Shown here piece after piece: positions 4,032 to 58,890 of a stretch of 64,000 nt of DNA. The DNA comes from Candidatus Woesearchaeota archaeon (lineage in GTDB: Archaea; Nanobdellota; Nanobdellia; Woesearchaeales; GW2011-AR9). Both the position numbers and the translations under genes were made by a program. The DNA is taken from positions 65,013 to 129,012 of the forward strand of contig JAGVZN010000010.1 in assembly GCA_018302605.1 (NCBI GenBank), given 5' to 3'. Each line of letters opens with the position of its first letter. Positions within the stretch are counted from its first letter, which is position 1. Under the pieces are notes generated by a model. That model was not told the DNA's origin, ran no database searches, and saw only the letters and a list, made by a program, of their open reading frames with translations.

Positions 4032-4125
4032 GCGGCTGTCGTATAACGGCTAGTATTTGGGACTGTGGAACCTTAGAGGTCGCAGCTATCCCGAGACGGG
4101 AGTTCGATTCTCCCCAGCCGCCCCA
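4032..4125 (+). tRNA. intron-containing tRNA; hand fold gives anticodon GTG (His-like, G-1 at 4031, C73 discriminator, CCA encoded)
   Basis: Acceptor gcggctg/cagccgc. D-stem gtat/gtat with GU pairs. Anticodon stem tggga/tcccg with loop ctgtgg followed by a ~19-nt insert. T-arm gggag-TTCGATT-ctccc. Confidence 0.5.
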
Positions 4126-13767: not shown

Positions 13768-13882
13768 AAGCTTACGGACGGCCATAGGGGCGCTTGTTAC
13801 CCGTTCCCATTTCGAACACGGAAGTCAAGGGCGTCTCCGTATCGGATTGTACTGCATTCCGCGGGAACTCCGGTAAGCTGTC
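13768..13882 (+). rRNA. rrn5: 5S ribosomal RNA (stand-alone)
   Basis: Contains CCCGTTCCCATTTCGAACACGGAAGTCAAGG (the universally conserved 5S loop/helix segment). Helix I pairs AGCTTAC (13769-13775) with GTAAGCT (13873-13879). Confidence 0.65.
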
Positions 13883-13980
13883 CACCTTTCTTTTTCTCTT
13901 TCTTCCTTTTTTTCTCTTTCTCGCGATTAAGCGAATGGAATGAGCGCATATCGCTTCGCTTTTCAAATGGTGTGACATTT

Positions 13981-48073: not shown

Positions 48074-48264
48074 AAAAGACCGTGAAGAAGAAAACCGTAG
48101 TCCGGACAGCAGCGGGCAAGAAGCCGGCAAAAAAAGAATATTTCTGTCCTCATTGCGGCTACGAGGCATTCAAGCTGGCCCGCCTATCCAGCTGCCCGTT
48201 GTGTGTGATCTGCTCGGGCTGTGGGAAAGAAGTGCGGAAATGCCGATGTAAGGAGGGGGAATAA
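48055..48264 (+). CDS. small protein with lysine-rich MAKKK N-terminus and C-terminal zinc ribbon
   Basis: MAKKKVKKTVKKK... then CPHCG...CPLCVICSGCGKEVRKCRC. Its start overlaps the last 19 nt of the transketolase C-subunit gene. Confidence 0.5.
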   Translation: MAKKKVKKTVKKKTVVRTAAGKKPAKKEYFCPHCGYEAFKLARLSSCPLCVICSGCGKEVRKCRCKEGE

Positions 48265-48283
48265 GTTTGTAGCAATGAATCCA

Positions 48284-48619
48284 TTAAGATAATTTGGTTT
48301 GTTTTCCGTCTTGGATTCCTTTTTCTAACGCTTTTAATCTGGTGCAGATAATCATTCTAAATCTTGAGATGCCTTCGATTGACACGCTATTGTTCATTTT
48401 AAGCTTCTCTGCCAGAGCAAAACGCTCTTGATGTGATTTTAAGACCGTGAATTTATACTCATGATCATCTTTTCTTATTTTGAGGGTAATGTTACCTTTT
48501 GGGGTTGTTCCTTTTTCGATTATTTTCTCTTTTAATCTTAATCTACGCTTAAACTCTTTTATTTTCCTCTCTTTGTTGGCAAGTACAGTCAAGCGGTCGA
48601 TGAGGGTGGTGTCAATCAT
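48284..48619 (-). CDS. hypothetical protein
   Basis: Start taken at the ATG at 48617-48619 (MIDTTLIDRL...), which overlaps the stop of the upstream minus-strand gene by 8 nt. The track's longer ORF begins at 48685. Confidence 0.4.
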   Translation of the reverse strand: MIDTTLIDRLTVLANKERKIKEFKRRLRLKEKIIEKGTTPKGNITLKIRKDDHEYKFTVLKSHQERFALAEKLKMNNSVSIEGISRFRMIICTRLKALEKGIQDGKQTKLS

Positions 48620-49097
48620 GTTTAAGTTCCTCATAAATCTCCAGCAACGCATCTTTATGCCCCCAGCCATCACAACTGTTATCAATAATAGAATCTAATC
48701 TTCCTTTAAATTTTGGTATTAAATCAGAATTATTATTTAACATCTTAATTATCTGCTCAAACATGGTTTCCATACTGGAGTAAAACGCTTCATACATATC
48801 GCCGTATTCATGATCAATCTTTTCTCCATTTTCAAGATAAAAAATCATTAATTCCAAAAGGTGCTCTTGATTTTTAGATATTTTCTTAAAGTCAACGAGT
48901 GCTTTTCTTGCTTCACGAAGATTTGTCTTTTCCTGCCACAAAGCCTCTTTTATTTTTTGTTTATAATAGGTTATAGCCTCATCGGCTCCACTTTGCAGTT
49001 TTAACTTTAAGAAATCAGCATTTTCTTTTCGTAATGAAGATAATTCTAAAAGAAGCGCGTATAATTCTTCTTTTCCTAATTTTTTGAGTTCTTTCAT
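48612..49097 (-). CDS. hypothetical protein (161 aa)
   Basis: Its ATG overlaps the stop of zinc-ribbon gene 1 (ATGA at 49094-49097). Confidence 0.5.
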   Translation of the reverse strand: MKELKKLGKEELYALLLELSSLRKENADFLKLKLQSGADEAITYYKQKIKEALWQEKTNLREARKALVDFKKISKNQEHLLELMIFYLENGEKIDHEYGDMYEAFYSSMETMFEQIIKMLNNNSDLIPKFKGRLDSIIDNSCDGWGHKDALLEIYEELKHD

Positions 49098-49213
49098 TGC
49101 AGGATCTTGTCAAAACATTTATCGCACATACCGACGTGCCATTCTTTATTATGTGCAGAGATTTTGGCACTGCATTGTTTGCAGTTGTAATTCATCTCTT
49201 CGGTGTTCTTCAT
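49094..49213 (-). CDS. small zinc-ribbon protein (39 aa), copy 1
   Basis: MKNTEEMNYNCKQCSAKISAHNKEWHVGMCDKCFDKILQ (CxxC...CxxC). Stop overlaps the next gene's start. Lies inside a ~180-nt direct repeat. Confidence 0.55.
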   Translation of the reverse strand: MKNTEEMNYNCKQCSAKISAHNKEWHVGMCDKCFDKILQ

Positions 49214-49257
49214 GTGAATGGTACGTTCTTTTACCGGTGAGGGTGGTTTGGGGCATA

Positions 49258-50127
49258 TTATTTTGGCTTATCCTCCAATTCTTCCGTTTCTTTCTCTAAT
49301 CTTTTCTTCTTTGTTAAATCTAGGTGATTTTCTGGAGAAATAACTTTAATTCCGAATGTTTTTTCGGCATCAGCTCTCGCTCTTCCAGCAACTTTTCCGC
49401 CTTCTTTGGCCGCATCCAATCCCTCAGCAAAGCCTTGAACTTCTTTCTTGCGCGTAGCTTCGGTGGTAAGCCTTTCACCGAGCATTGAAAAAATTAACTC
49501 TAAGTCATTCATGTGATCTCTGAGATTTTGATTTTTGAATTTTGGATCAAGCCTTTTTATCTCTTTGTGAATCTTTATAGGTACTCCAAAAGTAGCCTGA
49601 GAAATCTCGTTGGTTAAAATGGCGTATTCTCTCAGCTCTCCAATACCCCTTTTTTTCCATTCCTCAGTCAATTCCTGTCTGATGGCAATGCCTCTTAACC
49701 TCTTATCAATCCAATCTTTAGGATAGCCTTTAAGCTCATAATATTCTTTAGCTCTATCTTGTGCTAATTCAGGATTTTCAATCTCTTGAATGCGTTCATA
49801 ACCAACTTGTGCCAGCCAGCGCTTGAATGGCTCGACTTTCTTAGAGGGAATCGATTGGATTAATCTTAACATGGTCTCCGTATTTGCACTGTCAGTCTCC
49901 CTTAATTTACCATCTTCTGCTGGCATTTTCAACAGTACGATTTTATCGTACGGTTCAAATCCTTCTTCTAGAAGCTTAGCTTTTAGGTCAGACCAATATC
50001 TTTTTGGAAGGGAACTGTCTGTCAAGACTGCTACAATATCTATGACGGAGAAGTGCCATTCCTCTTTGTGCCATAACCGGCGAATGTTTTTGCCTTCAAA
50101 GATAACTAAAGCGTTTTTTTGATTCAT
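49258..50127 (-). CDS. Bro-N domain protein (phage antirepressor-like), paralog 2
   Basis: N-terminal Bro-N-like IRRLWHKEEWHFSVIDIVAVLTDS...LRLIQSIPSKKVEPFKRWLAQVG. ~50% identical to the ORF at 51596-52453. Confidence 0.65.
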   Translation of the reverse strand: MNQKNALVIFEGKNIRRLWHKEEWHFSVIDIVAVLTDSSLPKRYWSDLKAKLLEEGFEPYDKIVLLKMPAEDGKLRETDSANTETMLRLIQSIPSKKVEPFKRWLAQVGYERIQEIENPELAQDRAKEYYELKGYPKDWIDKRLRGIAIRQELTEEWKKRGIGELREYAILTNEISQATFGVPIKIHKEIKRLDPKFKNQNLRDHMNDLELIFSMLGERLTTEATRKKEVQGFAEGLDAAKEGGKVAGRARADAEKTFGIKVISPENHLDLTKKKRLEKETEELEDKPK

Positions 50128-50249
50128 TATTTTTCCACCATCTTGTCAAAACATTTATCGCACAGATTGGCGTGCCATTCTTTATTATGTGCAGAGATTT
50201 TGGCACTGCATTGTTTGCAGTTGTAATTCATCTCTTCGGTGTTCTTCAT
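50127..50249 (-). CDS. small zinc-ribbon protein (40 aa), copy 2
   Basis: MKNTEEMNYNCKQCSAKISAHNKEWHANLCDKCFDKMVEK. Its TAA overlaps the Bro-N paralog-2 ATG (TAATG). Confidence 0.55.
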   Translation of the reverse strand: MKNTEEMNYNCKQCSAKISAHNKEWHANLCDKCFDKMVEK

Positions 50250-50344
50250 GTGAATGGTACGTTCTTTTATCTTCTGGCAATTCTTTTCCGGTGAGGGTGG
50301 TTTGGGGCATATTATTTTGGCTTATCCTCCAATTCTTTCGTTTG

Positions 50345-51370
50345 TCATTTTCTACCGTTTTTTTTCCCAAATAATTTTTTGCTGAACTTGTCAAAATCAG
50401 AATTAAATAATCTGTCTTGAATAATCCTATATTTTTCAAACTCAGATTCAGCAAATTCTTTGGCAATCGCAGCAGTTACTTTGCCATGATTTTCTAAAAC
50501 TTCCCGACTATTAAATTTCAGAAACGCATTGAGTTTTTCTGCCCAATCTTTCATAGTTATGGGGATGTTTCTTTCTGCTTGATCTTCTGCAAAATCAAGA
50601 TACATGGTAACAATCCGATTTAAAGCTTTAATCTCATCTTGCTTTAGATAATTTTTAGCTATTGAAACATCGCTTTTGATGATTTTGCCTTGAGGGGCAT
50701 TCTTCCAAGTAGTTAACCCCATATACTCTTTTTTTGAATCTGCCCGTTTCAATACTAATTCCGGCGCTGTATGCTGATGAATGGCATAGTGCATCTTATT
50801 CTGGACTGTTGCAAAAAACTCTGTAGTGGTTCTTGAATTTTTATCATAATCCATGCTGGTAGCATAAATATCTGTTATTTTTTGATAAAAATTTCGTTCA
50901 CTGGCTCTAATTTCCCTTATTTCTTCCAGCAGATAATCAAAGTATTGCTTATTTAAAAACGAGCCATTTTTCAACCTTTCTCTATCTAAAACGTATCCTT
51001 TTATAGCAAATTCTTTTAAAACAGTAGTTGCCCAGATTCTGAATTGGGTTGCCCTTTGCGAATTTACCCGGTATCCTATTGAGATAATAACGTCTAAGTT
51101 ATAGAATTTAGTACTATATTCTTTCCCATCTGAAGCAGTATGTCGGAAATCCCGACAAACTGAATTTTCATCTAATTCCCCAGTATCAAATATCTCTCTG
51201 AGGTGTTCAGTAATAGTGCTTCTTCCTTTATCAAAAAGCTTAGCAATCATCTGCTGGGAAAGCCAAACGGTTTCATCTGCGTACTTTACTTCGATAGACT
51301 CTTCTCCTGACTGTGCGGTAAATATCAGGAATTCGGCAGTGCTGTTTCGGATGGCGAGGTCTTTAGTCAT
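50345..51370 (-). CDS. RhuM-family protein
   Basis: MTKDLAIRNSTAEFLIF...VWLSQQMIAKLF...YNLDVIISIGYRVNSQRATQFRIWATTVLKEF, which I recall as matching the RhuM/virulence-protein family. Confidence 0.65.
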   Translation of the reverse strand: MTKDLAIRNSTAEFLIFTAQSGEESIEVKYADETVWLSQQMIAKLFDKGRSTITEHLREIFDTGELDENSVCRDFRHTASDGKEYSTKFYNLDVIISIGYRVNSQRATQFRIWATTVLKEFAIKGYVLDRERLKNGSFLNKQYFDYLLEEIREIRASERNFYQKITDIYATSMDYDKNSRTTTEFFATVQNKMHYAIHQHTAPELVLKRADSKKEYMGLTTWKNAPQGKIIKSDVSIAKNYLKQDEIKALNRIVTMYLDFAEDQAERNIPITMKDWAEKLNAFLKFNSREVLENHGKVTAAIAKEFAESEFEKYRIIQDRLFNSDFDKFSKKLFGKKNGRK

Positions 51371-51595
51371 TTTTCTTCTCCGGTGAGGGTGTTGGGGGCA
51401 TTTTATTCTCTTTTGACATCTCTTTCCACCTCTTTTTTAACTATTAGGAATTTCCGAATAGTTGATTGCTCATCTAATTCTTGATGTCTGCTTCTATTTT
51501 TGCTTATCTGATAAAGTCATGAAAGTGCGGGCAAGTCTTTTCTGTATGAATACCACAACAGCTTAATACATTGCTGACCAGACATGAATAATGAT

Positions 51596-52453
51596 TTAGT
51601 TATTTGAGTCATCTTTATCGTGTTTTATCCTTTTTTTATCAGTAAAATGTATTTCTTTGGCATCCTTTGAAGTGACAACTTTTTCTCCAAGCCTTTTTTC
51701 AATTCTGTCTTTTGCAACTCTGGCAGTTTTTCCGCCTTCTCTAGCGATTTCTTTGCTTTTTCCAAGTGTTGCAGGGTTTTCTTTCTCAGAGATTTCTTTT
51801 GTGGTCGCTTCTGCAAGCATGTTCAGGATAAGTTCAATATTGGTCATATTATCCCTTAAGTTTTCTTTTTTCAGACCTTTAAATTGCTTATACTCTTTGA
51901 CTGTCTTGCCAGCCCATGCTTTGGTAATCTCAGTGGTAAGAATAGCAAAATCTTCCTGTTTTGAAATGCCAACCCTGTTCCATTCATCAGTTAATTGTTT
52001 TCTGATTTCAATCGTTTTGAGTCTCTGATTTATCCATTCCTCAGAATATCCTTTTTGCAGATAAGTTCTCATAGCTCTATCAATAGATAGTTCTGGATCT
52101 TCAGTTTCATCAATTCTTTCTCTTCCAACCCTTGCCAGCCACATTTTGAAAGGTTCTGCCTTTTTTGAGGGGATTGATTGGATTAATCTTAAAAGCTGTC
52201 CTGTGTCGGCAACATCAGTTAGGTAAAATTTGCCATCCGACGACTGCATCTTCAGTCGGTTACAATTTGTAACCAACTCATCTCCTTCTTTTCTGAGCCT
52301 GAATTTGAGGACTTTCCAATAATTATTAGGACTTGGACTATCTGTCAACACTTCAATAACATCAATAATAGAAAAATACCATTTCTCTTCATCTTCTCTC
52401 CACTGCGTCCGTACTTTCTTATCTTCAAAGAGCTTGATGGATTTCTCTGTCAT
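51596..52453 (-). CDS. Bro-N domain protein (phage antirepressor-like), paralog 1
   Basis: VRTQWREDEEKWYFSIIDVIEVLTDS...LRLIQSIPSKKAEPFKMWLARVG. Confidence 0.65.
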   Translation of the reverse strand: MTEKSIKLFEDKKVRTQWREDEEKWYFSIIDVIEVLTDSPSPNNYWKVLKFRLRKEGDELVTNCNRLKMQSSDGKFYLTDVADTGQLLRLIQSIPSKKAEPFKMWLARVGRERIDETEDPELSIDRAMRTYLQKGYSEEWINQRLKTIEIRKQLTDEWNRVGISKQEDFAILTTEITKAWAGKTVKEYKQFKGLKKENLRDNMTNIELILNMLAEATTKEISEKENPATLGKSKEIAREGGKTARVAKDRIEKRLGEKVVTSKDAKEIHFTDKKRIKHDKDDSNN

Positions 52454-52517
52454 GATATATTAAAACTATGGGGAGTATATAAGCCTTAGGCGTACTTGAC
52501 CAGTGGGCGAGTGGCTT

Positions 52518-52799
52518 TTATCTAATCCCAAACTTCTTACAAATGAGACACTTATTATTTCTCCAAGAAAATGTTCTCTTCTGCCACTCTTCATCTGAAA
52601 GGTTGCAGATAGTCTTATCAGATCGAATTAGAGTAAGGAATTTGTTGTGCGTCATCTCAACTCCTCGCATTTTCTTGGCCAGTTCCTGTAGTTTAGGAAT
52701 ATGGTCTTCTTGACGTTGTTCATCAAGATAGCATTTTCGAGTGCAATAATTACCATAGTACCAATTAACAAGTTGTTGGATAGGAACGGCTTTTTTCAT
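52518..52799 (-). CDS. small Cys-rich (zinc-finger-like) protein
   Basis: 93 aa with a CTRKC...CLICKKFG cysteine pattern. Overlaps the upstream gene by 4 nt. Confidence 0.4.
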   Translation of the reverse strand: MKKAVPIQQLVNWYYGNYCTRKCYLDEQRQEDHIPKLQELAKKMRGVEMTHNKFLTLIRSDKTICNLSDEEWQKRTFSWRNNKCLICKKFGIR

Positions 52800-53431
52800 T
52801 CCAACCTCCTTTGCATCTTTCTTTTGGAGGTTTCTGCAAGTCTTCCCTCTTCAGCTGCTCTTTTCCGTTGCAACTTTTGAATATCTTCTTCGGCGGGGAG
52901 ATTTTCTGGAACAATTTTATTTTTTAGTAAAACTTTTCGCATTTCGCTATTATTCTTTACGTGTTCTCCAGTTATTCGAATCTCTCCCTGAAGATTATTC
53001 TGCTTTACCTTAAAGTTAGTAATTTCTGTTGCGAGATTTTTGGCAGCGATGGTCACTGTTGGCAAGAAATCAGCTAATGGCCTGCTCTTTGGGATTTCTA
53101 ACTTCTTTTTCATTTGCGAAGTGTTCAAACCGCCGAATAACGCTTCATCCCCTTTGCTTCTGATTCGGGCAAAGCCGTTTTCGTCAACTCCTCGTTCATA
53201 AATTAGCTGAGATAACTCCGTTTCGGCTGCGATGAGCTTATTTCGAGCTTCAAGCCTTTCTCCTAAAGCTATCCTCTGCTCGATTATCTCCTGTTTTCTG
53301 GTTTGAACAGCAAAATAACTCTGGGCAAAGGCAATTTGTTCCTTTCTGGGATCGCCATTTTGAGCAATAAGATAGCAGGCATAGCGGGTAAGCATGAAAT
53401 CGTCTATTTCTTTTGTTGCTCCTTTCGGCAT
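52796..53431 (-). CDS. DinD/antirepressor-like hypothetical protein
   Basis: 211 aa. AQSYFAVQTRKQEI and the coiled-coil C-terminus resemble DNA-damage-inducible protein D-like and phage antirepressor C-terminal regions. Assigned from memory only. Confidence 0.4.
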   Translation of the reverse strand: MPKGATKEIDDFMLTRYACYLIAQNGDPRKEQIAFAQSYFAVQTRKQEIIEQRIALGERLEARNKLIAAETELSQLIYERGVDENGFARIRSKGDEALFGGLNTSQMKKKLEIPKSRPLADFLPTVTIAAKNLATEITNFKVKQNNLQGEIRITGEHVKNNSEMRKVLLKNKIVPENLPAEEDIQKLQRKRAAEEGRLAETSKRKMQRRLE

Positions 53432-53654
53432 AGCTATCGTTTTGTTGACGCCAACAAAATGATCTTCAATTCTCTGTTGAGATTTGTAACAGGAAATCTT
53501 AGCTTTTTCAATGACTTTTAGAAAATTCCTCCATTCATCATAGTCTAAAAGTAATGGTTTCTTTTTTCATTTAGATTCAAAGAAGAGGGTGGTATATAAA
53601 TATCATTTGTGGACTTGACCAGTGGGGAGTGGGTTCTCGATGCGTTGTTGAGAA

Positions 53655-54008
53655 GTGAAGATGATCCGGCTGGATTTCAAGAATCTGGGCGTGAACGGTC
53701 TCTACGGCTACAGTCAGGGTGGAAAAGTGGTTGTCTCTGCCAAAGACAGTGTGAACACGCAGGTAAACACGCTGGTTCATGAGATTACGCATGAACTACT
53801 CCATCACCCCAGTGATCTTACAGAACAGCAGAAAGAGATTGAGGCTGAGGGAACGGCGTACGTGGTGTGTAAGCATTTTGGTCTTTCGACCAAGAGCTTC
53901 ACCTATCTGGCCATGTACAAAGCTGACTCCAAAGAGATCATGGCTCATTTGGAAGCGATTGCGAGGGCGAGTAAGGAGGTGATTGAATTTTTGATTTTTA
54001 TTTTTTAG
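53655..54008 (+). CDS. ImmA/IrrE-family (DUF955) zinc metallopeptidase-like protein
   Basis: HEITHELLHH HExxH motif in a ~117-aa protein. GTG start. TATA-like GGTATATAAAT sits 60 nt upstream. Confidence 0.5.
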   Translation: MKMIRLDFKNLGVNGLYGYSQGGKVVVSAKDSVNTQVNTLVHEITHELLHHPSDLTEQQKEIEAEGTAYVVCKHFGLSTKSFTYLAMYKADSKEIMAHLEAIARASKEVIEFLIFIF

Positions 54009-54045
54009 ATGTAAGAGTTTTTCTGTTTGCATTATACATAGCTTT

Positions 54046-54114
54046 TTGGAAGTTAAATTTTTCGATTTGGAAGTTAAATATTTGTAACTTGGAAGTTAAG
54101 ACCAAACTTTATAT
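54046..54114 (+). promoter_or_regulatory. three phased direct repeats TTGGAAGTTAA(A/G) followed by a TTTATATA box
   Basis: Repeats at 54046-54058, 54067-54079 and 54089-54100 (21-22 bp period). TTTATATA at 54107-54114 lies ~24 nt upstream of the ATG at 54138. Confidence 0.45.
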
Positions 54115-54137
54115 AACGCCTAGTTTCTCCTCTAGTC

Positions 54138-54278
54138 ATGTCAAAAAAGATGGTGGCTGATAGTCCTAATAATTTTACCTTTACTGCATTAAGGGGCATC
54201 CAAGCAGGCAGAGAATATTATGCCGTAATGTGTCCTCTACGACTTATCCCACGAATGTTCTTGTTTAATGTTTCATAA
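54138..54278 (+). pseudogene. N-terminal fragment of a DGQHR/DndB-like domain protein (46 codons)
   Basis: MSKKMVADSPNNFTFTALRGIQAGREYYAVMCPLRLIPRMF matches, from memory, the conserved N-terminal RG-Q-G-R-YY...MCPL region of DndB/DGQHR proteins. The reading frame stops after 46 codons. Confidence 0.35.
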
Positions 54279-54369
54279 AATCCTTCAAATTCATGTTCTT
54301 GAAAGCCATTCATTAATTTTTGTTTGTTCATTTTGTATTTCACGGTGTTTTCTTTTAAATGTTTTAAAT

Positions 54370-55830
54370 CTATCTTATTCTATTGATTTTTCCTAACTCT
54401 CCCACAATCCAAACCATCGCTTCTGTATCCCTTTCACAATAGCGAAGCAAGTCTTCCCTGATCTTCTTTCTAGCTGAAGCAGTCAGTTCACCAAATGTCA
54501 TATCTAAGTAGGCAATAGAAGCACAATCTCCATCTTTAATATCCAAACCTTCATATCCTTTCCCTACCAGAGCAGGTAGAACTTTCTTGATGGAAGCAGA
54601 GCCTTTCTGCTTGGGGTTGTAATAAAGGAAATCCTTAAAGGGTTTATACAAATCAACAATCCTTCCTAAGAGAACATCAACCCAGGCTGTATATTCTGGA
54701 AAATCTTTTACTAACTCTTTCAATACTGACCCCTCAAAGCCTTCAAAGTACACTAATACGCTTCCAGAAGCAGGTAAATATTCTTTCAAAGCCGCCAGAA
54801 ACTTAGGTCGAGGATCATCCTTGCCATCGTGCAGGTACTCAAAATGTTTCGTTTTACCATTCTCAACTACATGCAGAGAAAACTGAAACGGCATCCGTTG
54901 ATACGGTCTTGTTCCCTGAAACTCAGGAACTGCAAACGAACACGTTTCAAAATCAAGATGGCAGGCTGGTTCTCGAATTCCATCTAAAAATTTCTTAATT
55001 CTAGCCTTCTCGAGATGAATCTCACCACTTTTCTCACATTTTAATTGAATAACTTGTTGCTCATTAGACAGAACATCATCAGGAACATCTTTCAAAGCAT
55101 GAATTCCTTGCTCAAATAGTTTCATACTTTTTCTGCTGTTATACAAGTGAAAGACATGATTCTCAGGTAGAAAACCCCAACACTCTTCCTTCACTTGGCA
55201 CTTTTTTGGGATAGTGCAGTAATTCTTCTCTGCACTATTTGGGAAAGTAGGGGAATTAACAATACCCCACAGAAATTCAATATTCTTTGGTACTTCATAC
55301 TGCAATTCTTCTACATCTTCGGTCAAATCCTCTTGGACAAATAGTTTATGAACATCAATTTCTCCATCTCGAACGTATTGATTATTCAACAGCAGAAGAA
55401 AGCATTTTCTGATCTTCAAACCAGCTTTTCTATAGACGTATAATTGAAATGATAAATCCCAGTAATGGTCCTTCTTAATTTTGCTACTGCTTTTGACTTC
55501 AATAATATCCCATTCATCTTTACCCACAGGAACGAGAATATCCGCTCTGCCATAGAGGTTATCTACTTGCAGAGCGGCTTCAAAGAGAATTTTTCGTTTT
55601 TTGAGCAGTTCTTTTGATTTCTGAATATTTTCAAGATAATCTGCTTCGGGAATATCGATTCCCTGAGGAAAGAGTTTCTTTGCCCATTGTCCGACGATCC
55701 TTCCTTGTTCAAATCTTCTCAGAACGCCGGGTGAATGGGGAGGAATATTTTCTTCATCATGATACTTCATCCATAGGTGTCCCGGGCATTCCATTCCTGT
55801 TGTGTAATCGGATTTGGAGAGTGGTTTCAT
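54370..55830 (-). CDS. DUF2779-family protein: N-terminal PD-(D/E)xK (Cas4/RecB-like) nuclease domain plus C-terminal DEDD-like exonuclease domain
   Basis: LSKSDYTTGMECPGHLWMKYH, ADILVPVGKDEWDIIEVKSS (D...EVK) and HLDFETCSFAVPEF...RPYQRMPFQFSLH. Confidence 0.65.
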   Translation of the reverse strand: MKPLSKSDYTTGMECPGHLWMKYHDEENIPPHSPGVLRRFEQGRIVGQWAKKLFPQGIDIPEADYLENIQKSKELLKKRKILFEAALQVDNLYGRADILVPVGKDEWDIIEVKSSSKIKKDHYWDLSFQLYVYRKAGLKIRKCFLLLLNNQYVRDGEIDVHKLFVQEDLTEDVEELQYEVPKNIEFLWGIVNSPTFPNSAEKNYCTIPKKCQVKEECWGFLPENHVFHLYNSRKSMKLFEQGIHALKDVPDDVLSNEQQVIQLKCEKSGEIHLEKARIKKFLDGIREPACHLDFETCSFAVPEFQGTRPYQRMPFQFSLHVVENGKTKHFEYLHDGKDDPRPKFLAALKEYLPASGSVLVYFEGFEGSVLKELVKDFPEYTAWVDVLLGRIVDLYKPFKDFLYYNPKQKGSASIKKVLPALVGKGYEGLDIKDGDCASIAYLDMTFGELTASARKKIREDLLRYCERDTEAMVWIVGELGKINRIR

Positions 55831-56326
55831 GTACGTATTAATTCCTCTGTTTTGTTGATGAAATCTAACACTTTGTCTTCGTAGTCTTCTACCATTTCCC
55901 TGCTAAACTTAATATTTGTGGCATAACTGGCTTCATGCCTGTCCTCTTTAAGGTTGGTGTAGAGTTCTGCATCCTCTTTGCTTATAGACAGTTCATGTAA
56001 TAGTTTTGCTTCATCTTTCGTGATAGAATATTCCTGGATAAGGATTAGAATTGTGGCATAGTGATTTTTGGAGGAATAATTTCTATTTGTAATGAGTGCC
56101 AAAGCACAATGGTATATGCGTAATATAACGTTACAATAAGCCAATCATTGAATTTGTGGTGTTCTTTGTTTAGTTTGTAGAATTCCAGATTATGCCTTGC
56201 TTTTTTAAGATGAGAGTTCACCAATTCTTTGTTTTCTTGAATCTTTTTGATATGCTTTTTGGTAATGAAGAAGTCTAGCTCTTGTCCTAAATATTTTTGG
56301 TCTGCAAATAATTTATCAATATTCAT
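55827..56326 (-). pseudogene. HEPN-domain toxin gene split by a frameshift
   Basis: The first frame (56326-56045) carries the N-terminal helix. The second frame (56144-55827) carries ILRIYHCALALITNRNYSSKNHYAT...KEDRHEASYA, a HEPN R-x-H...Y-like C-terminus. The two overlap over 56045-56144. Confidence 0.5.
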
Positions 56327-56906
56327 TTAGAATAACCTCATAGAAATTTTGTTCTTTGTGAATGGGGAAGCCTGTTTTTCTCGCTTGCATAATCAGATCA
56401 TCTTTGTTCTTGATAAATTGATCCGTAGTTGTTTGAAATAGGGAGAATGGATATTTTGAGGTTATTTCGGCTTCTTTTTTATTTTCTGTTAAGTCTATTT
56501 TTTTATTAGCTACTATCAATAGGTCTATATCACTTCTGTTTTGTTCTTCCTTTCTGGAAGTTGAGCCAAAGATGATGATAGTATACGTTTCTGTAGGGAT
56601 ATTTTTGAGAAAGTTTCTGAGGGGAACTTTTACTCCCAGGTTTAAGCGGTTGAACTTTTGCATTGCTATTTCTGAAAATTTAAGAGCAAACAGTTTCTTA
56701 TCTTTTACTTTATAGAAAGTATTTGATTTAGTTTTTTCTTGGTTCAGGGTATTATTTCTTACCAGTTTTGTTAAGGTATTGGTTAAAGAGCTGTCGGAGA
56801 GCTGGGAGAGTTCTTTTATCTCGTTGAAGTATAAACTATTCTTTTTGCTTTCAAAATACGCGTGATATACTTTATCTTCTGGTTTCAGTTGTTGGGGGAT
56901 TTTCAT
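56316..56906 (-). CDS. minimal nucleotidyltransferase (MNT) domain protein, cognate partner of the HEPN gene
   Basis: IIIFGSTSRKEEQNRSDIDLLIV (GS...SDxDLL NTase motif). Overlaps the HEPN start by 11 nt. Confidence 0.6.
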   Translation of the reverse strand: MKIPQQLKPEDKVYHAYFESKKNSLYFNEIKELSQLSDSSLTNTLTKLVRNNTLNQEKTKSNTFYKVKDKKLFALKFSEIAMQKFNRLNLGVKVPLRNFLKNIPTETYTIIIFGSTSRKEEQNRSDIDLLIVANKKIDLTENKKEAEITSKYPFSLFQTTTDQFIKNKDDLIMQARKTGFPIHKEQNFYEVILNEY

Positions 56907-57004
56907 TTTAGACTGATACGGGGGGATTATTTATAAACACTTCTGTTTTTGGAGTGATTACTCCTGTTTTTGTGGTTTACTTGTTCAAATCGTTGGAGAA
57001 CAAT

Positions 57005-57107
57005 GGAACGGCGAGGCGGAATATTTTCTTTATCATGATACTTCATCCATAAGTGTCCTGGACATCCCATGCCGGTGGTGTAATCTGATTTGGAGAGTGG
57101 TTTCATG
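57005..57107 (-). pseudogene. duplicated 5' fragment of the DUF2779 gene
   Basis: 57016-57107 is ~88% identical to 55743-55830. It encodes MKPLSKSDYTTGMGCPGHLWMKYHDKENIPP...VLQRFEQ and then diverges and terminates. Confidence 0.6.
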
Positions 57108-57109
57108 GT

Positions 57110-57532
57110 TTAGTCCTCATGATGATAGAGCGTTACAATATCTTTAGTTTTTAAAATAATGACTTTATCTTGCTTTGCAAAATGCTTATCGTCAGACCAG
57201 ATAATAGAGTGTTCTTGACTTAATGCTGCGGCAATAAATGGGACGTCTTCAGGATCAATGTGTCCCATGATTCTTTTGGCTTCATTCCAATAAGCAGTCA
57301 ATTCTTCAGTAGGAATAAGCCTGATGAAGCGGAAGAGAGTATTGAGGATGATCAAAAATTCTGATTCGGAGATCCCGGACTTTGTAAGGATCAATTCTTT
57401 ATACTTTCTAATCTTATGGAAAGAGATCTCTGGAAAGCAGAAATCTTGTCCGGACTTGACAATTATTTCTCTCGTTGTAGAGTCTCTTATCAGTGCAGAA
57501 AGAAGAATATTGACATCAGTGATGATAATCAT
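57110..57532 (-). CDS. vapC: PIN-domain ribonuclease (VapC-like toxin)
   Basis: MIIITDVNILLSAL (Asp at position 6) with later acidic residues (WSDDKHF). Confidence 0.55.
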   Translation of the reverse strand: MIIITDVNILLSALIRDSTTREIIVKSGQDFCFPEISFHKIRKYKELILTKSGISESEFLIILNTLFRFIRLIPTEELTAYWNEAKRIMGHIDPEDVPFIAAALSQEHSIIWSDDKHFAKQDKVIILKTKDIVTLYHHED

Positions 57533-57541
57533 CGTGAAGCT

Positions 57542-57766
57542 TCAATCCCGATTTAGATCTTCAAATGTCTCTGCTTTTATTTTTCTGGAGATTGTGGAAA
57601 TATCTCTCTGAGTTAATTTGCTCTTCCTAGCGATTTTATCCATCATTTCCATCATTTCCATCTTCTGCGAGATCGATTTTCGGACTACTTCACTCCATCT
57701 AATTTCGGAGTGCTTTTTCATTCGTTCCTGCAGGTCGTCAGGCAAGGCTAAAGTTATATTTCCCAT
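57542..57766 (-). CDS. putative VapB-like antitoxin
   Basis: 74-aa ORF immediately upstream of the PIN gene. The N-terminal ITLALPDDLQERMKK resembles ribbon-helix-helix antitoxins. Confidence 0.4.
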   Translation of the reverse strand: MGNITLALPDDLQERMKKHSEIRWSEVVRKSISQKMEMMEMMDKIARKSKLTQRDISTISRKIKAETFEDLNRD

Positions 57767-57769
57767 AAT

Positions 57770-57988
57770 GTGAGAAGATGTGATATCACATATTTAAAGG
57801 TTCTGGTTTTAATGGCTCTCGAGCGGAAATTGAGCACCGGCTATCGGACGATCAAAGCGAATTGTGAAATATTAGAGCGCTTTGGTCAAGTCCACATTAA
57901 AGAACAGATCCATCCGGCAAATGGTCGCTCATCCCATCTTGTCTCGATTACTTCGCAAGGTTTCGATACAATTAAGAAAAAGAAATAG
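57770..57988 (+). CDS. hypothetical small protein (possible wHTH)
   Basis: 72-aa ORF divergent from the VapBC-like pair. Confidence 0.25.
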   Translation: MRRCDITYLKVLVLMALERKLSTGYRTIKANCEILERFGQVHIKEQIHPANGRSSHLVSITSQGFDTIKKKK

Positions 57989-58051
57989 GCTCCTGAACAC
58001 TAGAAACCAATATAAAGAAGCAATTCTCCAAAGACTAAGAGGTGATTTGCC

Positions 58052-58435
58052 ATGACAACTAAAATCATTAAAGAATTACAAGATATCAAACGGAAAGCCG
58101 CAATTATTAATCAGAAGATCGGAAGCGCAAAATTATCCTATCCGCAAGTTTGTCAATGCGGTGAAGAACTGGATCTTGTCTATGATGAAATCTTCTCTTT
58201 CGAAAGTGCGCTCCTCAAGAATGACCCCTTTGTAGAAATTGGACGCTATGGTCAAGAATCAGCGTATATCTTCAAAACATTGCGCACAAGCCATTCTCCA
58301 CTTCCAAAGAAATTTATTGTTTCTGAACTGAAGAAGTTTGAAATCCATCCCCGAAGAATCGAATACTGCATGGAACTTCTTCGTAAGACCGGCGAGATTT
58401 ATGAACCGAAGAAAGGGTTTGTTCAGAGAATATGA
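58052..58435 (+). CDS. hypothetical protein
   Basis: 127-aa ORF. Confidence 0.4.
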   Translation: MTTKIIKELQDIKRKAAIINQKIGSAKLSYPQVCQCGEELDLVYDEIFSFESALLKNDPFVEIGRYGQESAYIFKTLRTSHSPLPKKFIVSELKKFEIHPRRIEYCMELLRKTGEIYEPKKGFVQRI

Positions 58436-58774
58436 TTATTTCTTTTTTTTCAATTCTAACCGACGCTTGACAAATGCTTCTAACTCTTTTAACTCTCGGG
58501 GATGATATCTCTTTGTCTTCAGATACATTTCTAGAATATCTGCTCGATGGTCAATACGTGGCTGATCATACATTTGTATTGCCGACAACTTGCTACATTT
58601 CTGATGAAGTATTTTTATCTTTGCAAGAATAGCCTCATCTGCGATTACTTTCTCTGATTCAAACTTCAGTCTTTCATATTCTTCTTTAACATCTTCCTGA
58701 ATTTCTTCTCTCAATTCTTGTTCTCGTTGTTTCTGGATATTTTGTTTGGCTTGTTTGTATAATTTGATGTCCAT
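58436..58774 (-). CDS. hypothetical coiled-coil protein
   Basis: 112 aa, E/K/R-rich heptad-like sequence. Confidence 0.35.
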   Translation of the reverse strand: MDIKLYKQAKQNIQKQREQELREEIQEDVKEEYERLKFESEKVIADEAILAKIKILHQKCSKLSAIQMYDQPRIDHRADILEMYLKTKRYHPRELKELEAFVKRRLELKKKK

Positions 58775-58890
58775 AATTCTCTCAAAAGATTCACATTATA
58801 TTAATATTCTTGATAAGAATATTCTGACTTGAATAATACATCATTTCCAAATTCTTAAAATTCAGCCAAGAGTGAATTTTTGCCCAAAAA

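Follow-up and report, generated by a model that had tools for sequence, protein, structure and literature searches.

Organization of the locus

The locus described here encodes a minimal nucleotidyltransferase (MNT) and a HEPN protein and lies within a 64,000-nt stretch of the genome of a Candidatus Woesearchaeota archaeon, a groundwater archaeon of the DPANN group (GCA_018302605.1, contig JAGVZN010000010.1, positions 65,013 to 129,012; this whole stretch is designated the window in the following). All genes of the locus (57766-54370) are located on the minus strand and are arranged in the order ribbon-helix-helix (RHH) gene and PIN gene, a 43-codon relic of a DUF2779 gene, a cassette composed of a gene for an MNT with a winged helix-turn-helix (wHTH) domain and a HEPN gene, and a full-length DUF2779 gene. 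The individual features are listed below in the direction of transcription.

57542..57766, minus strand: RHH (VapB-like) antitoxin gene, 74 aa; Pfam RHH_12, precomputed on the identical gene in metagenome contigs
57110..57532, minus strand: PIN_2 (VapC-like) gene, 140 aa; Pfam PF10130, 3.1e-26
56977..57106, minus strand: remains of a second DUF2779 gene, comprising about 43 codons of its 5′ end, with a 59-aa open frame that continues to 56927
56961..56976, minus strand: operator-like direct repeat 1, ACCACAAAAACAGGAG; conservation in alignment A1 (16 loci) sets in abruptly here, which marks the left end of the cassette
56940..56955, minus strand: operator-like direct repeat 2, ACTCCAAAAACAGAAG; 21 nt after repeat 1, nearly invariant across loci
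56927..56937, minus strand: archaeal TATA-like box, TTTATAAATAA; centre about 27 nt before the MNT ATG, TTATA core invariant in A1
56316..56906, minus strand: gene for wHTH and minimal nucleotidyltransferase (MNT/MntA-like), intact, 196 aa
55827..56326, minus strand: HEPN gene (PF05168 type), broken by a 1-nt deletion at 56115/56116; 11-nt overlap with the MNT gene
54370..55830, minus strand: gene for a Cas4-like PD-(D/E)XK and DUF2779 (RNase H-like exonuclease) protein, full length, 486 aa

The genes are tightly packed. The ATG of the relic lies 3 nt past the stop codon of the PIN gene, and the TGA of the HEPN gene overlaps the ATG of the DUF2779 gene (ATGA, 55830-55827), both details being missing from a preliminary description of the locus. 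The open frame of the relic passes through the operator-like repeats and the TATA-like box of the cassette before it ends at 56927. A search of the window revealed no further DUF2779 fragment and no other copy of the MNT gene, the HEPN gene, or the operator-like element. A scan for sigma-70 promoters and terminators, a model that is irrelevant to an archaeon, gave counts equal to those obtained with shuffled sequences.

The frameshift in the HEPN gene

The HEPN gene of the window is divided into two open reading frames (ORFs) in different frames, 56326-56045 (93 aa) and 56144-55827 (105 aa), which overlap at 56045-56144, and tblastn places the switch of frame exactly at 56117/56116. The lesion is a change of GCATTATAC to GCATATAC (TT to T) at 56115/56116, after codon 70, and does not lie in a homopolymer; the frames, the overlap, and the lack of a homopolymer had been given correctly in the preliminary description. 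The locus was found by exact-protein look-ups in public metagenome assemblies (ENA megahit assemblies, "ANAN16" scaffolds, JGI, and Logan contigs). The deletion allele is present in seven of them (ERZ28563625, ERZ27254767, ERZ28563803, JGI 3300025323, JGI 3300002105, SRR3989342, and SRR3989344), which are independent assemblies and not necessarily independent samples, some of them possibly being re-assemblies of overlapping read sets; all seven are identical to the window. An intact allele, with one more T and a single ORF of 166 aa, is present in two contigs, L007 (ERZ27254749) and L021 (ERZ28563784). Apart from the additional T, L007 is identical to the window over 3.1 kb, and L021 differs from the window at six further positions and thus represents a haplotype with six single-nucleotide polymorphisms (SNPs). 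Since the deletion is found in seven assemblies and the intact allele in two, the frameshift is a genuine mutation which is still polymorphic in the population, as the preliminary description had supposed from the sequence context. Two haplotypes have the intact allele, and one of these acquired the deletion very recently.

An artefact, namely a chimeric join at the repeated DUF2779 start combined with an indel error in the HEPN gene, is extremely improbable. Several short contigs do end inside the relic (L020, L022), as assemblers do at repeats, but the stretch from the relic through the cassette to the start of the DUF2779 gene is contained whole and without any difference in each of seven contigs, which stem from different assemblers and accessions (ENA megahit, ANAN16 scaffolds, JGI). 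Moreover, the deletion recurs in the seven assemblies within a TT dinucleotide rather than a homopolymer, and the intact allele is also linked to the six SNPs of the second haplotype.

The repaired 166-aa protein matches Pfam family PF05168 with 24.0 bits (cutoff 22) over residues 38-163, a region spanning the break, whereas the two halves taken separately show no Pfam HEPN match, so that the name "HEPN gene" used in the preliminary description holds for the repaired ORF and not for the halves as they stand. The repaired protein aligns through the break with the HEPN protein AF0298 (PDB 2hsb; YYALYHCALAL vs YYAMFHAAKAM), and the profile of its family matches AF0298 at 1.1e-4. The truncated product consists of 70 native and 23 out-of-frame residues and is devoid of the invariant residues R130 and Y135. 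It might be argued that the split gene is still functional, either by programmed ribosomal frameshifting or in the form of two cooperating fragments, as the allele with the frameshift outnumbers the intact one in the assemblies (7 vs 2) and the downstream half retains the R-x4-Y motif. However, a slippery heptamer is absent at TATTACGCATATACC, the second half has no ATG start and only a TTG, the break lies inside a conserved helix (LYYA|LYH in the alignment with AF0298), and the full-length HEPN relatives from other loci, 163-168 aa in size, are single-frame proteins in 17 of 17 cases. We therefore regard a functional split gene as very improbable.

Properties and classification of the MNT/HEPN pair

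The MNT protein carries the motif GSX10DXD (variously delimited as FGSTSRKEEQNRSDIDLL, FGSTSRKEEQNRSDID, and GSTSRKEEQNRSDID), and the corresponding residues G114, S115, D126, and D128 are invariant in the family (alignment A3). In Pfam it matches PF18765 (Polbeta) with 31.9 bits (cutoff 26.9) and PF01909 (NTP_transf_2) with 27.7 bits (cutoff 21), and the family profile matches the nucleotidyltransferase (NTase) of a solved HEPN-MNT complex (PDB 9xbd_E, 2.4e-6) as well as Shewanella MntA (5yep) and HI0073. Through its first approximately 75 residues, the same profile matches winged-helix repressors of the ArsR/SmtB type (HlyU, SmtB, PagR). Over both the wHTH and the NTase region the protein is similar to PADLOC model PDC-M05A (3e-16), and the NCBIfam MntA model gives 23.5 bits at a cutoff of 60. 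The MNT of the window has six extra N-terminal codons (MKIPQQL-KPEDK) compared to all relatives (MKPEDK), owing to an 18-nt insertion directly after ATGAAA (56888-56906).

In the HEPN family, residues R130, A133, and Y135 are invariant (R-[HKR]-x-A-S-Y), and the family alignment contains no conserved histidine 4-6 residues past the arginine, i.e. no RX4HXY motif. PF05168 is the sole Pfam match of the intact ORF, which was assigned neither to DUF86 (PF01934) nor to the HEPN type of PF08780. Class II HEPN/MNT pairs have been defined as combinations of a PF05168 HEPN protein with a PF01909 MNT protein (Yao et al. 2020, NAR, PMC7641770), and the same study notes that validation of these pairs as toxin-antitoxin systems is lacking. 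Judged by domains and motifs, the pair is a class II HEPN/MNT module rather than a type VII system of the class I HepT/MntA type. Of the toxin-antitoxin cassette proposed in the preliminary description, the intact MNT gene (56906-56316) with its catalytic motif and the HEPN partner stand; the role of the partner is another matter. Its motif is R-x4-Y and not RX4H, and toxicity is still unconfirmed for HEPN proteins of this class, so that the designation "toxin" is presumptive for this HEPN protein.

The DUF2779 gene and its 5′ stump

The 486-aa DUF2779 protein contains both expected domains at full length, PF11074 (3.7e-40, 137.5 bits) and the Cas4-like PF01930 (1.2e-8, 35.6 bits), and its homologs in Nanoarchaeota/Woesearchaeota are 82-85% identical at 100% coverage. 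The stump on the other side of the cassette forms a direct repeat with the 5′ end of this gene. The pairwise alignment of 55739-55831 with 57015-57107 comprises 93 nt without gaps at 89% identity, in agreement with the approximately 88% reported previously. The copies are 1276 nt apart, and when two 3-nt indels are allowed, the repeat extends to 55701 and 56977, respectively (approximately 131 nt). The translated stump matches the N-terminus of the DUF2779 protein in tblastn with E = 8e-18, and the repeat is thus far beyond chance. The homology ends after about 43 codons, at 56980-56977, and there is no 3′ remainder of a second DUF2779 gene in the window; the preliminary description had raised the possibility that the fragment belongs to a second gene extending further. 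The homology ends at most 4 nt from repeat 1, so that the break falls on the natural left border of the cassette.

The differences between the two copies are informative with respect to the origin of the stump. Within codons 1-31 there are 9 synonymous and 2 non-synonymous differences (proportion of synonymous sites differing, pS, 0.51; of non-synonymous sites, pN, 0.027; Fisher p ~1e-6), and codons 32-43 are the only part with non-conservative changes and indels. The synonymous-site signature of the stump begins with ATGAAACCACTCTCCAAATCAGATTACACCACCGGCATGGGATGTCCAGG. Over the first 93 nt, the stump is 88% identical to the gene of the window and 83-85% identical to DUF2779 genes on unrelated contigs, which in turn are 75-88% identical to each other; the 5′ end of the DUF2779 family is thus very conserved at the DNA level. 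Since pS greatly exceeds pN and the identity is no higher than that between genes of different genomes, the two copies diverged as separate functional genes, and the stump represents the remains of another DUF2779 gene, which had evolved separately and was once functional. The preliminary description was therefore correct in recognizing the 5′ stump of another DUF2779 gene and mistaken in regarding it as a duplicated copy of the 5′ end of its neighbour.

An origin of the repeat by duplication in situ, followed by divergence, would have required an insertion that generated a long target-site duplication or a Campbell-type integration of a circular cassette carrying the 5′ end of a DUF2779 gene. 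The geometry fits, as direct repeats of the first approximately 131 nt of the gene flank the cassette in the same orientation, and the conserved 5′ end could act as a site of homologous crossover. A dead duplicate, however, would gain mostly non-synonymous changes, which is the opposite of the pattern observed, the copies are no more similar than genes of different genomes, and the region is otherwise approximately 100% identical across the population, which leaves no time for a divergence of 11% in situ. This alternative is quite improbable.

Boundaries, cis elements, and distribution of the cassette

Searches with the MNT protein yielded hundreds of clusters at 74-82% identity as well as 21 metagenome loci, and two more loci were obtained by look-up. 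Wherever the available sequence extends far enough, the MNT gene is followed by a HEPN gene overlapping it by the same 11 nt, L068 being the exception, and the flanking ORFs differ in nearly every locus, amounting to about 16 distinct contexts in Woesearchaeota. When the upstream regions of 16 loci are aligned (A1), similarity begins abruptly at repeat 1, a 16-nt motif of the form ACTCCAAAAACAGAAG, which is repeated 21 nt later; the second repeat is directly followed by TTTATAAATA, and the ATG of the MNT gene (56906 in the window) is located about 22 nt further downstream. The repeats and the TATA-like box are nearly invariant across loci, the synonymous sites of both genes are saturated (pS 0.6-0.9), and the non-synonymous divergence (dN) is 0.11-0.19; the genes and the cis elements are thus under long-term purifying selection. 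The 16-nt repeats are a putative operator for the wHTH domain, and the A/T-rich box is a putative archaeal TATA box from which a leaderless mRNA would be transcribed.

At the right-hand side, the stop codon of the HEPN gene is the TGA of an ATGA sequence in 11 of 15 distinct loci. In five of these loci a long gene downstream has its native start at this ATG; it codes for DUF2779 (window, L054), HsdR (L067), saccharopine dehydrogenase (L065), or aRF1 (L056). A motif resembling the operator, AAAACAGAGGAAT, at the 3′ end of the HEPN gene was considered as a right-hand recombination site and set aside, as it is explained by the conserved coding sequence for NKTEEL. A type I restriction-modification (R-M) locus harbours the cassette in L067 (284-10374), where the cassette is preceded by an HsdS (Methylase_S) gene and by several ORFs lacking a Pfam match, and its stop codon overlaps the hsdR start. 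Homologs of the IrrE-like gene of the window (80%) and of a 211-aa ORF (75%) are located 3′ of hsdR, the same neighbours as those following DUF2779 in the window.

Two cassettes upstream of aRF1 are 98.9% identical and differ by a 61-nt segment (L051:1084-1160 vs L056:3152-3170). In L051, the HEPN stop codon is followed by a 16-nt copy of the aRF1 start, ATGAAATTAACCAAAG, and the real aRF1 start is located 61 nt further, whereas in L056 the HEPN stop codon overlaps the aRF1 start directly. This difference looks like a deletion between two 16-nt repeats, and the copy in L051 looks like a second gene-start stump beside a cassette. A more far-reaching idea, which we consider improbable, is that the wHTH-MNT/HEPN unit is a portable, self-regulated promoter-plus-regulator cassette, anciently conserved in Woesearchaeota, which is fused via ATGA to the native start of a downstream gene and controls or couples its expression. 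The gene-start stumps, i.e. the DUF2779 relic and the 16-nt aRF1 start copy of L051, would then be by-products of relocation, and the coexistence of intact and knocked-out HEPN alleles would amount to a natural experiment on the coupling to the downstream gene.

Proposed history and function

The overall explanation which we consider likely is that one recombination joined an RHH-PIN-DUF2779′ block to an operator-MNT-HEPN-DUF2779 block at the left end of the cassette, and that the deletion allele leaves an antitoxin-only module. A single event would have fused the two blocks, the second including the TATA box, exactly at the natural left end of the cassette, with the remainder of the older DUF2779′ gene being deleted or replaced; this could have come about if homologous recombination, within DUF2779 or past it, was paired with an illegitimate junction at the border of the cassette. 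As operator for the ArsR-like wHTH domain of MNT, the pair of 16-nt direct repeats adjoining the TATA box would allow autoregulation and the synthesis of a leaderless mRNA. By analogy to MntA/HepT, the NTase domain with its GSX10DXD motif may neutralise the HEPN partner, possibly by AMPylation of the invariant Tyr135 within R130-x-x-A-S-Y135. The 1-nt deletion after codon 70 truncates HEPN before this motif. Translation of the deletion allele also stops short of the overlapping DUF2779 start codon, which may have a polar effect on DUF2779.

Several observations weigh against this explanation. Strong long-term purifying selection and conservation throughout DPANN archaea (PMC6393860) fit better to a domesticated function than to a selfish addiction module, and the HEPN protein is devoid of the RX4H RNase motif and belongs to a class that is not established as toxin-antitoxin (PMC7641770). 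Among the relatives, none was found in which RHH-PIN is followed by an intact DUF2779 gene or in which DUF2779 occurs in the same neighbourhood without the cassette. Moreover, the closest relatives of the DUF2779 gene (82-85%) come after a type III R-M helicase gene, a RhuM fragment, or a DUF4268 gene, and neither MNT-HEPN nor PIN genes precede them.

Since the state before the event was not found among the relatives, its direction remains an either/or: the newcomer could be the MNT-HEPN(-DUF2779) block or the RHH-PIN-stump block, and either could be the resident. When the PIN, MNT, and DUF2779 proteins were looked up by exact match, no other arrangement was retrieved, with every contig carrying this PIN gene also carrying the stump, and PIN relatives at 72-76% identity are found in other contexts. 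L054 shares the order MNT-HEPN-ATGA-DUF2779 at 73-79% protein identity to the window, which may reflect a linked three-gene block; an independent association is equally possible, because the DUF2779 protein of the window is closer (82-85%) to those of genes unlinked to the cassette. Phylogenetic congruence of cassette and DUF2779 gene in the window and L054 was uninformative, all cassettes being about equally distant and synonymous sites being saturated. The footprint of insertion or recombination postulated in the preliminary description is thus supported by the position of the stump end, at most 4 nt from a sharp cassette end that is seen in many contexts, and which block was carried in stays an alternative between two.

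With respect to the toxin-antitoxin question, disruptions were found in four independent cases, and they always affect HEPN alone and never the NTase: in the window, in L068, in the second NTase/HEPN pair of L054, and in the second pair of L050/L052. In L068 (117-800), which contains the closest MNT relative (82%), the HEPN gene breaks off after codon 25 owing to a deletion, and a different pair of NTase and HEPN genes comes next. In L054 (3821-4900), L050 (1807-2791), and L052 (1488-2472), a second, distantly related wHTH-NTase/HEPN pair adjoins the cassette; its NTase is intact in 3 of 3 loci, and its HEPN is interrupted for about 80 nt by an insertion in L054 and by a frameshift in L050/L052. 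The disruption of HEPN only, beside an intact NTase, is the asymmetry expected of a toxin-antitoxin pair. Alternatively, the wHTH-MNT/HEPN pair could be a conserved regulatory or housekeeping unit of DPANN archaea and not a toxin-antitoxin system, the loss observed here being ordinary gene decay. In favour of this view are a dN/dS far below 1 with saturated dS across loci, the location directly upstream of housekeeping genes (aRF1 in L056, saccharopine dehydrogenase in L065), the absence of RX4H from class II HEPN proteins (PMC7641770), and the report of a fused MNT-HEPN cluster, cls.004259 (NEQ050), which is unusually conserved in DPANN archaea, often in a housekeeping context (Makarova, Wolf & Koonin 2019, PMC6393860). 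On the other hand, the pair is also present in defence contexts (in the type I R-M operon of L067, beside HsdM in L054, and in toxin-antitoxin arrays), its flanks differ at almost every locus, and the four disruptions are confined to HEPN. We regard a housekeeping unit as unlikely, yet as an alternative to be taken seriously, and prefer the reading in which the deletion allele leaves an antitoxin-only module.

Genomic island and population setting

The whole locus is part of the following feature.

48240..58890, no strand assigned: low-GC variable island of about 10.6 kb, containing the whole locus and Bro-N, RhuM, and IrrE-like genes and genes of unidentified function

The G + C content (GC) of the island is 0.37 compared to 0.456 in the rest of the window, and the island is bordered by a 52-aa gene next to a Pyr_redox gene and by a transketolase-like gene. 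In the related Nanoarchaeota genomes L024, L030, and L026, these flanking genes are only 385-733 bp apart, as opposed to 10.6 kb in the window. The comparison with related genomes suggested in the preliminary description thus uncovered an empty site for the entire island and none for the cassette alone. In two other relatives, Pst phosphate transporter or hydrolase genes occupy the island site instead. Relatives of the neighbouring Pyr_redox gene belong to metagenome-assembled genomes of Nanoarchaeota/Woesearchaeota, none of which was closer than 65% for this gene in a scan of genome contigs.

No Pfam match to an integrase, transposase, or recombinase was obtained among the island ORFs scanned, no tRNA gene was found at the island edge, and the DUF2779 stump provides the only convincing flanking repeat at the ends of the island and of the cassette; there is thus no indication of a self-mobile element. 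Besides the locus, the island contains two Bro-N genes, a RhuM gene, a fragment of an IrrE-like peptidase gene, and ORFs without assigned function. The Bro-N paralogs (49258-50127 and 51596-52453) are 45% identical and flank the RhuM gene. The region 3′ of DUF2779 (53551-53877) is structurally polymorphic in the population: in L002 and L003, 78 additional nt between 53551 and 53552 restore a Bro-N ORF of 284 aa (211 aa in the window), and in Scaffold_1974 (L001/L004) the 324 nt at 53553-53876 give way to a different sequence of 175 nt, so that the IrrE-like gene is mostly lost. The Rfam search gave no match in or near the locus; elsewhere in the window it revealed a 91-nt tRNA gene at 4032-4122, presumably intron-containing and missed by ARAGORN, and a 5S rRNA gene at 13774-13886.

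Significance and comparison with known systems

The locus provides a population-level snapshot of the shuffling and decay of toxin-antitoxin-type modules in DPANN archaea, in which a recombination scar is kept to the nucleotide and one and the same haplotype is found both with the intact allele of the presumed toxin gene and with its 1-nt knock-out. The repeated loss of HEPN alone is indirect evidence for HEPN being the harmful component, in class II modules that were never validated experimentally. The comparison also defines the exact boundaries and the conserved cis elements, i.e. the two 16-nt repeats and the TATA box, of a widespread and strongly conserved wHTH-MNT/HEPN cassette of Woesearchaeota. 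Shuffling and decay of the cassette are ordinary but well documented here and leave current concepts unchanged.

The genes adjoining the cassette belong to known families. DUF2779 has been described as RNase H-like family F.17 with an N-terminal DUF83 (Cas4-like) nuclease domain (Majorek et al. 2014, PMC3985635); the 486-aa protein contains both domains at full length, no difference from the family was noted, and it is predicted to comprise a 3′-5′ exonuclease and a PD-(D/E)XK nuclease. The upstream pair (57766-57110) resembles VapBC modules in that the PIN_2 toxin gene is preceded by an RHH antitoxin gene. Its PIN protein is 100% identical to J4210_01850 of Candidatus Woesearchaeota archaeon (NCBI), and the match of the RHH gene to NCBIfam VapB_Sulfo is weak (2.5e-5). 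The pair lies outside the cassette and is merely its neighbour, with the PIN gene preceding the stump.

For the cassette itself, the closest counterpart is the class II HEPN/MNT type (PMC7641770), with which it shares the position of the MNT gene upstream of and overlapping the HEPN gene, the GSX10DXD motif of MNT, and a PF05168 HEPN protein having the conserved tyrosine without RX4H. It differs by the N-terminal ArsR-like wHTH domain of MNT (196 aa compared to <150 aa), by the conserved operator-like element of two repeats, and by the frameshifted HEPN gene in the genome of the window. With HepT/MntA it has in common the gene order, the catalytic motif of the NTase, a conserved tyrosine near a conserved arginine, and the profile match of MNT to 5yep, whereas HepT is a DUF86/PF01934 protein with RX4HXY and the HEPN protein of the window shows R-[HKR]-x-A-S-Y without the conserved histidine. 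The PADLOC candidate defence system PDC-M05 is matched by MNT through its component A, but the HEPN protein matched no PADLOC model, and neither did the PIN and RHH proteins. Cluster cls.004259 (NEQ050), to which the pair can be likened by description only, also combines MNT and HEPN and shares conservation in DPANN archaea and a housekeeping context, but is described as a fused protein, whereas the window contains two overlapping genes. The pair thus belongs to an already known kind, the class II HEPN/MNT modules, to which the locus adds the cassette boundaries, the operator-like repeats with the TATA box, and a polymorphic natural knock-out.

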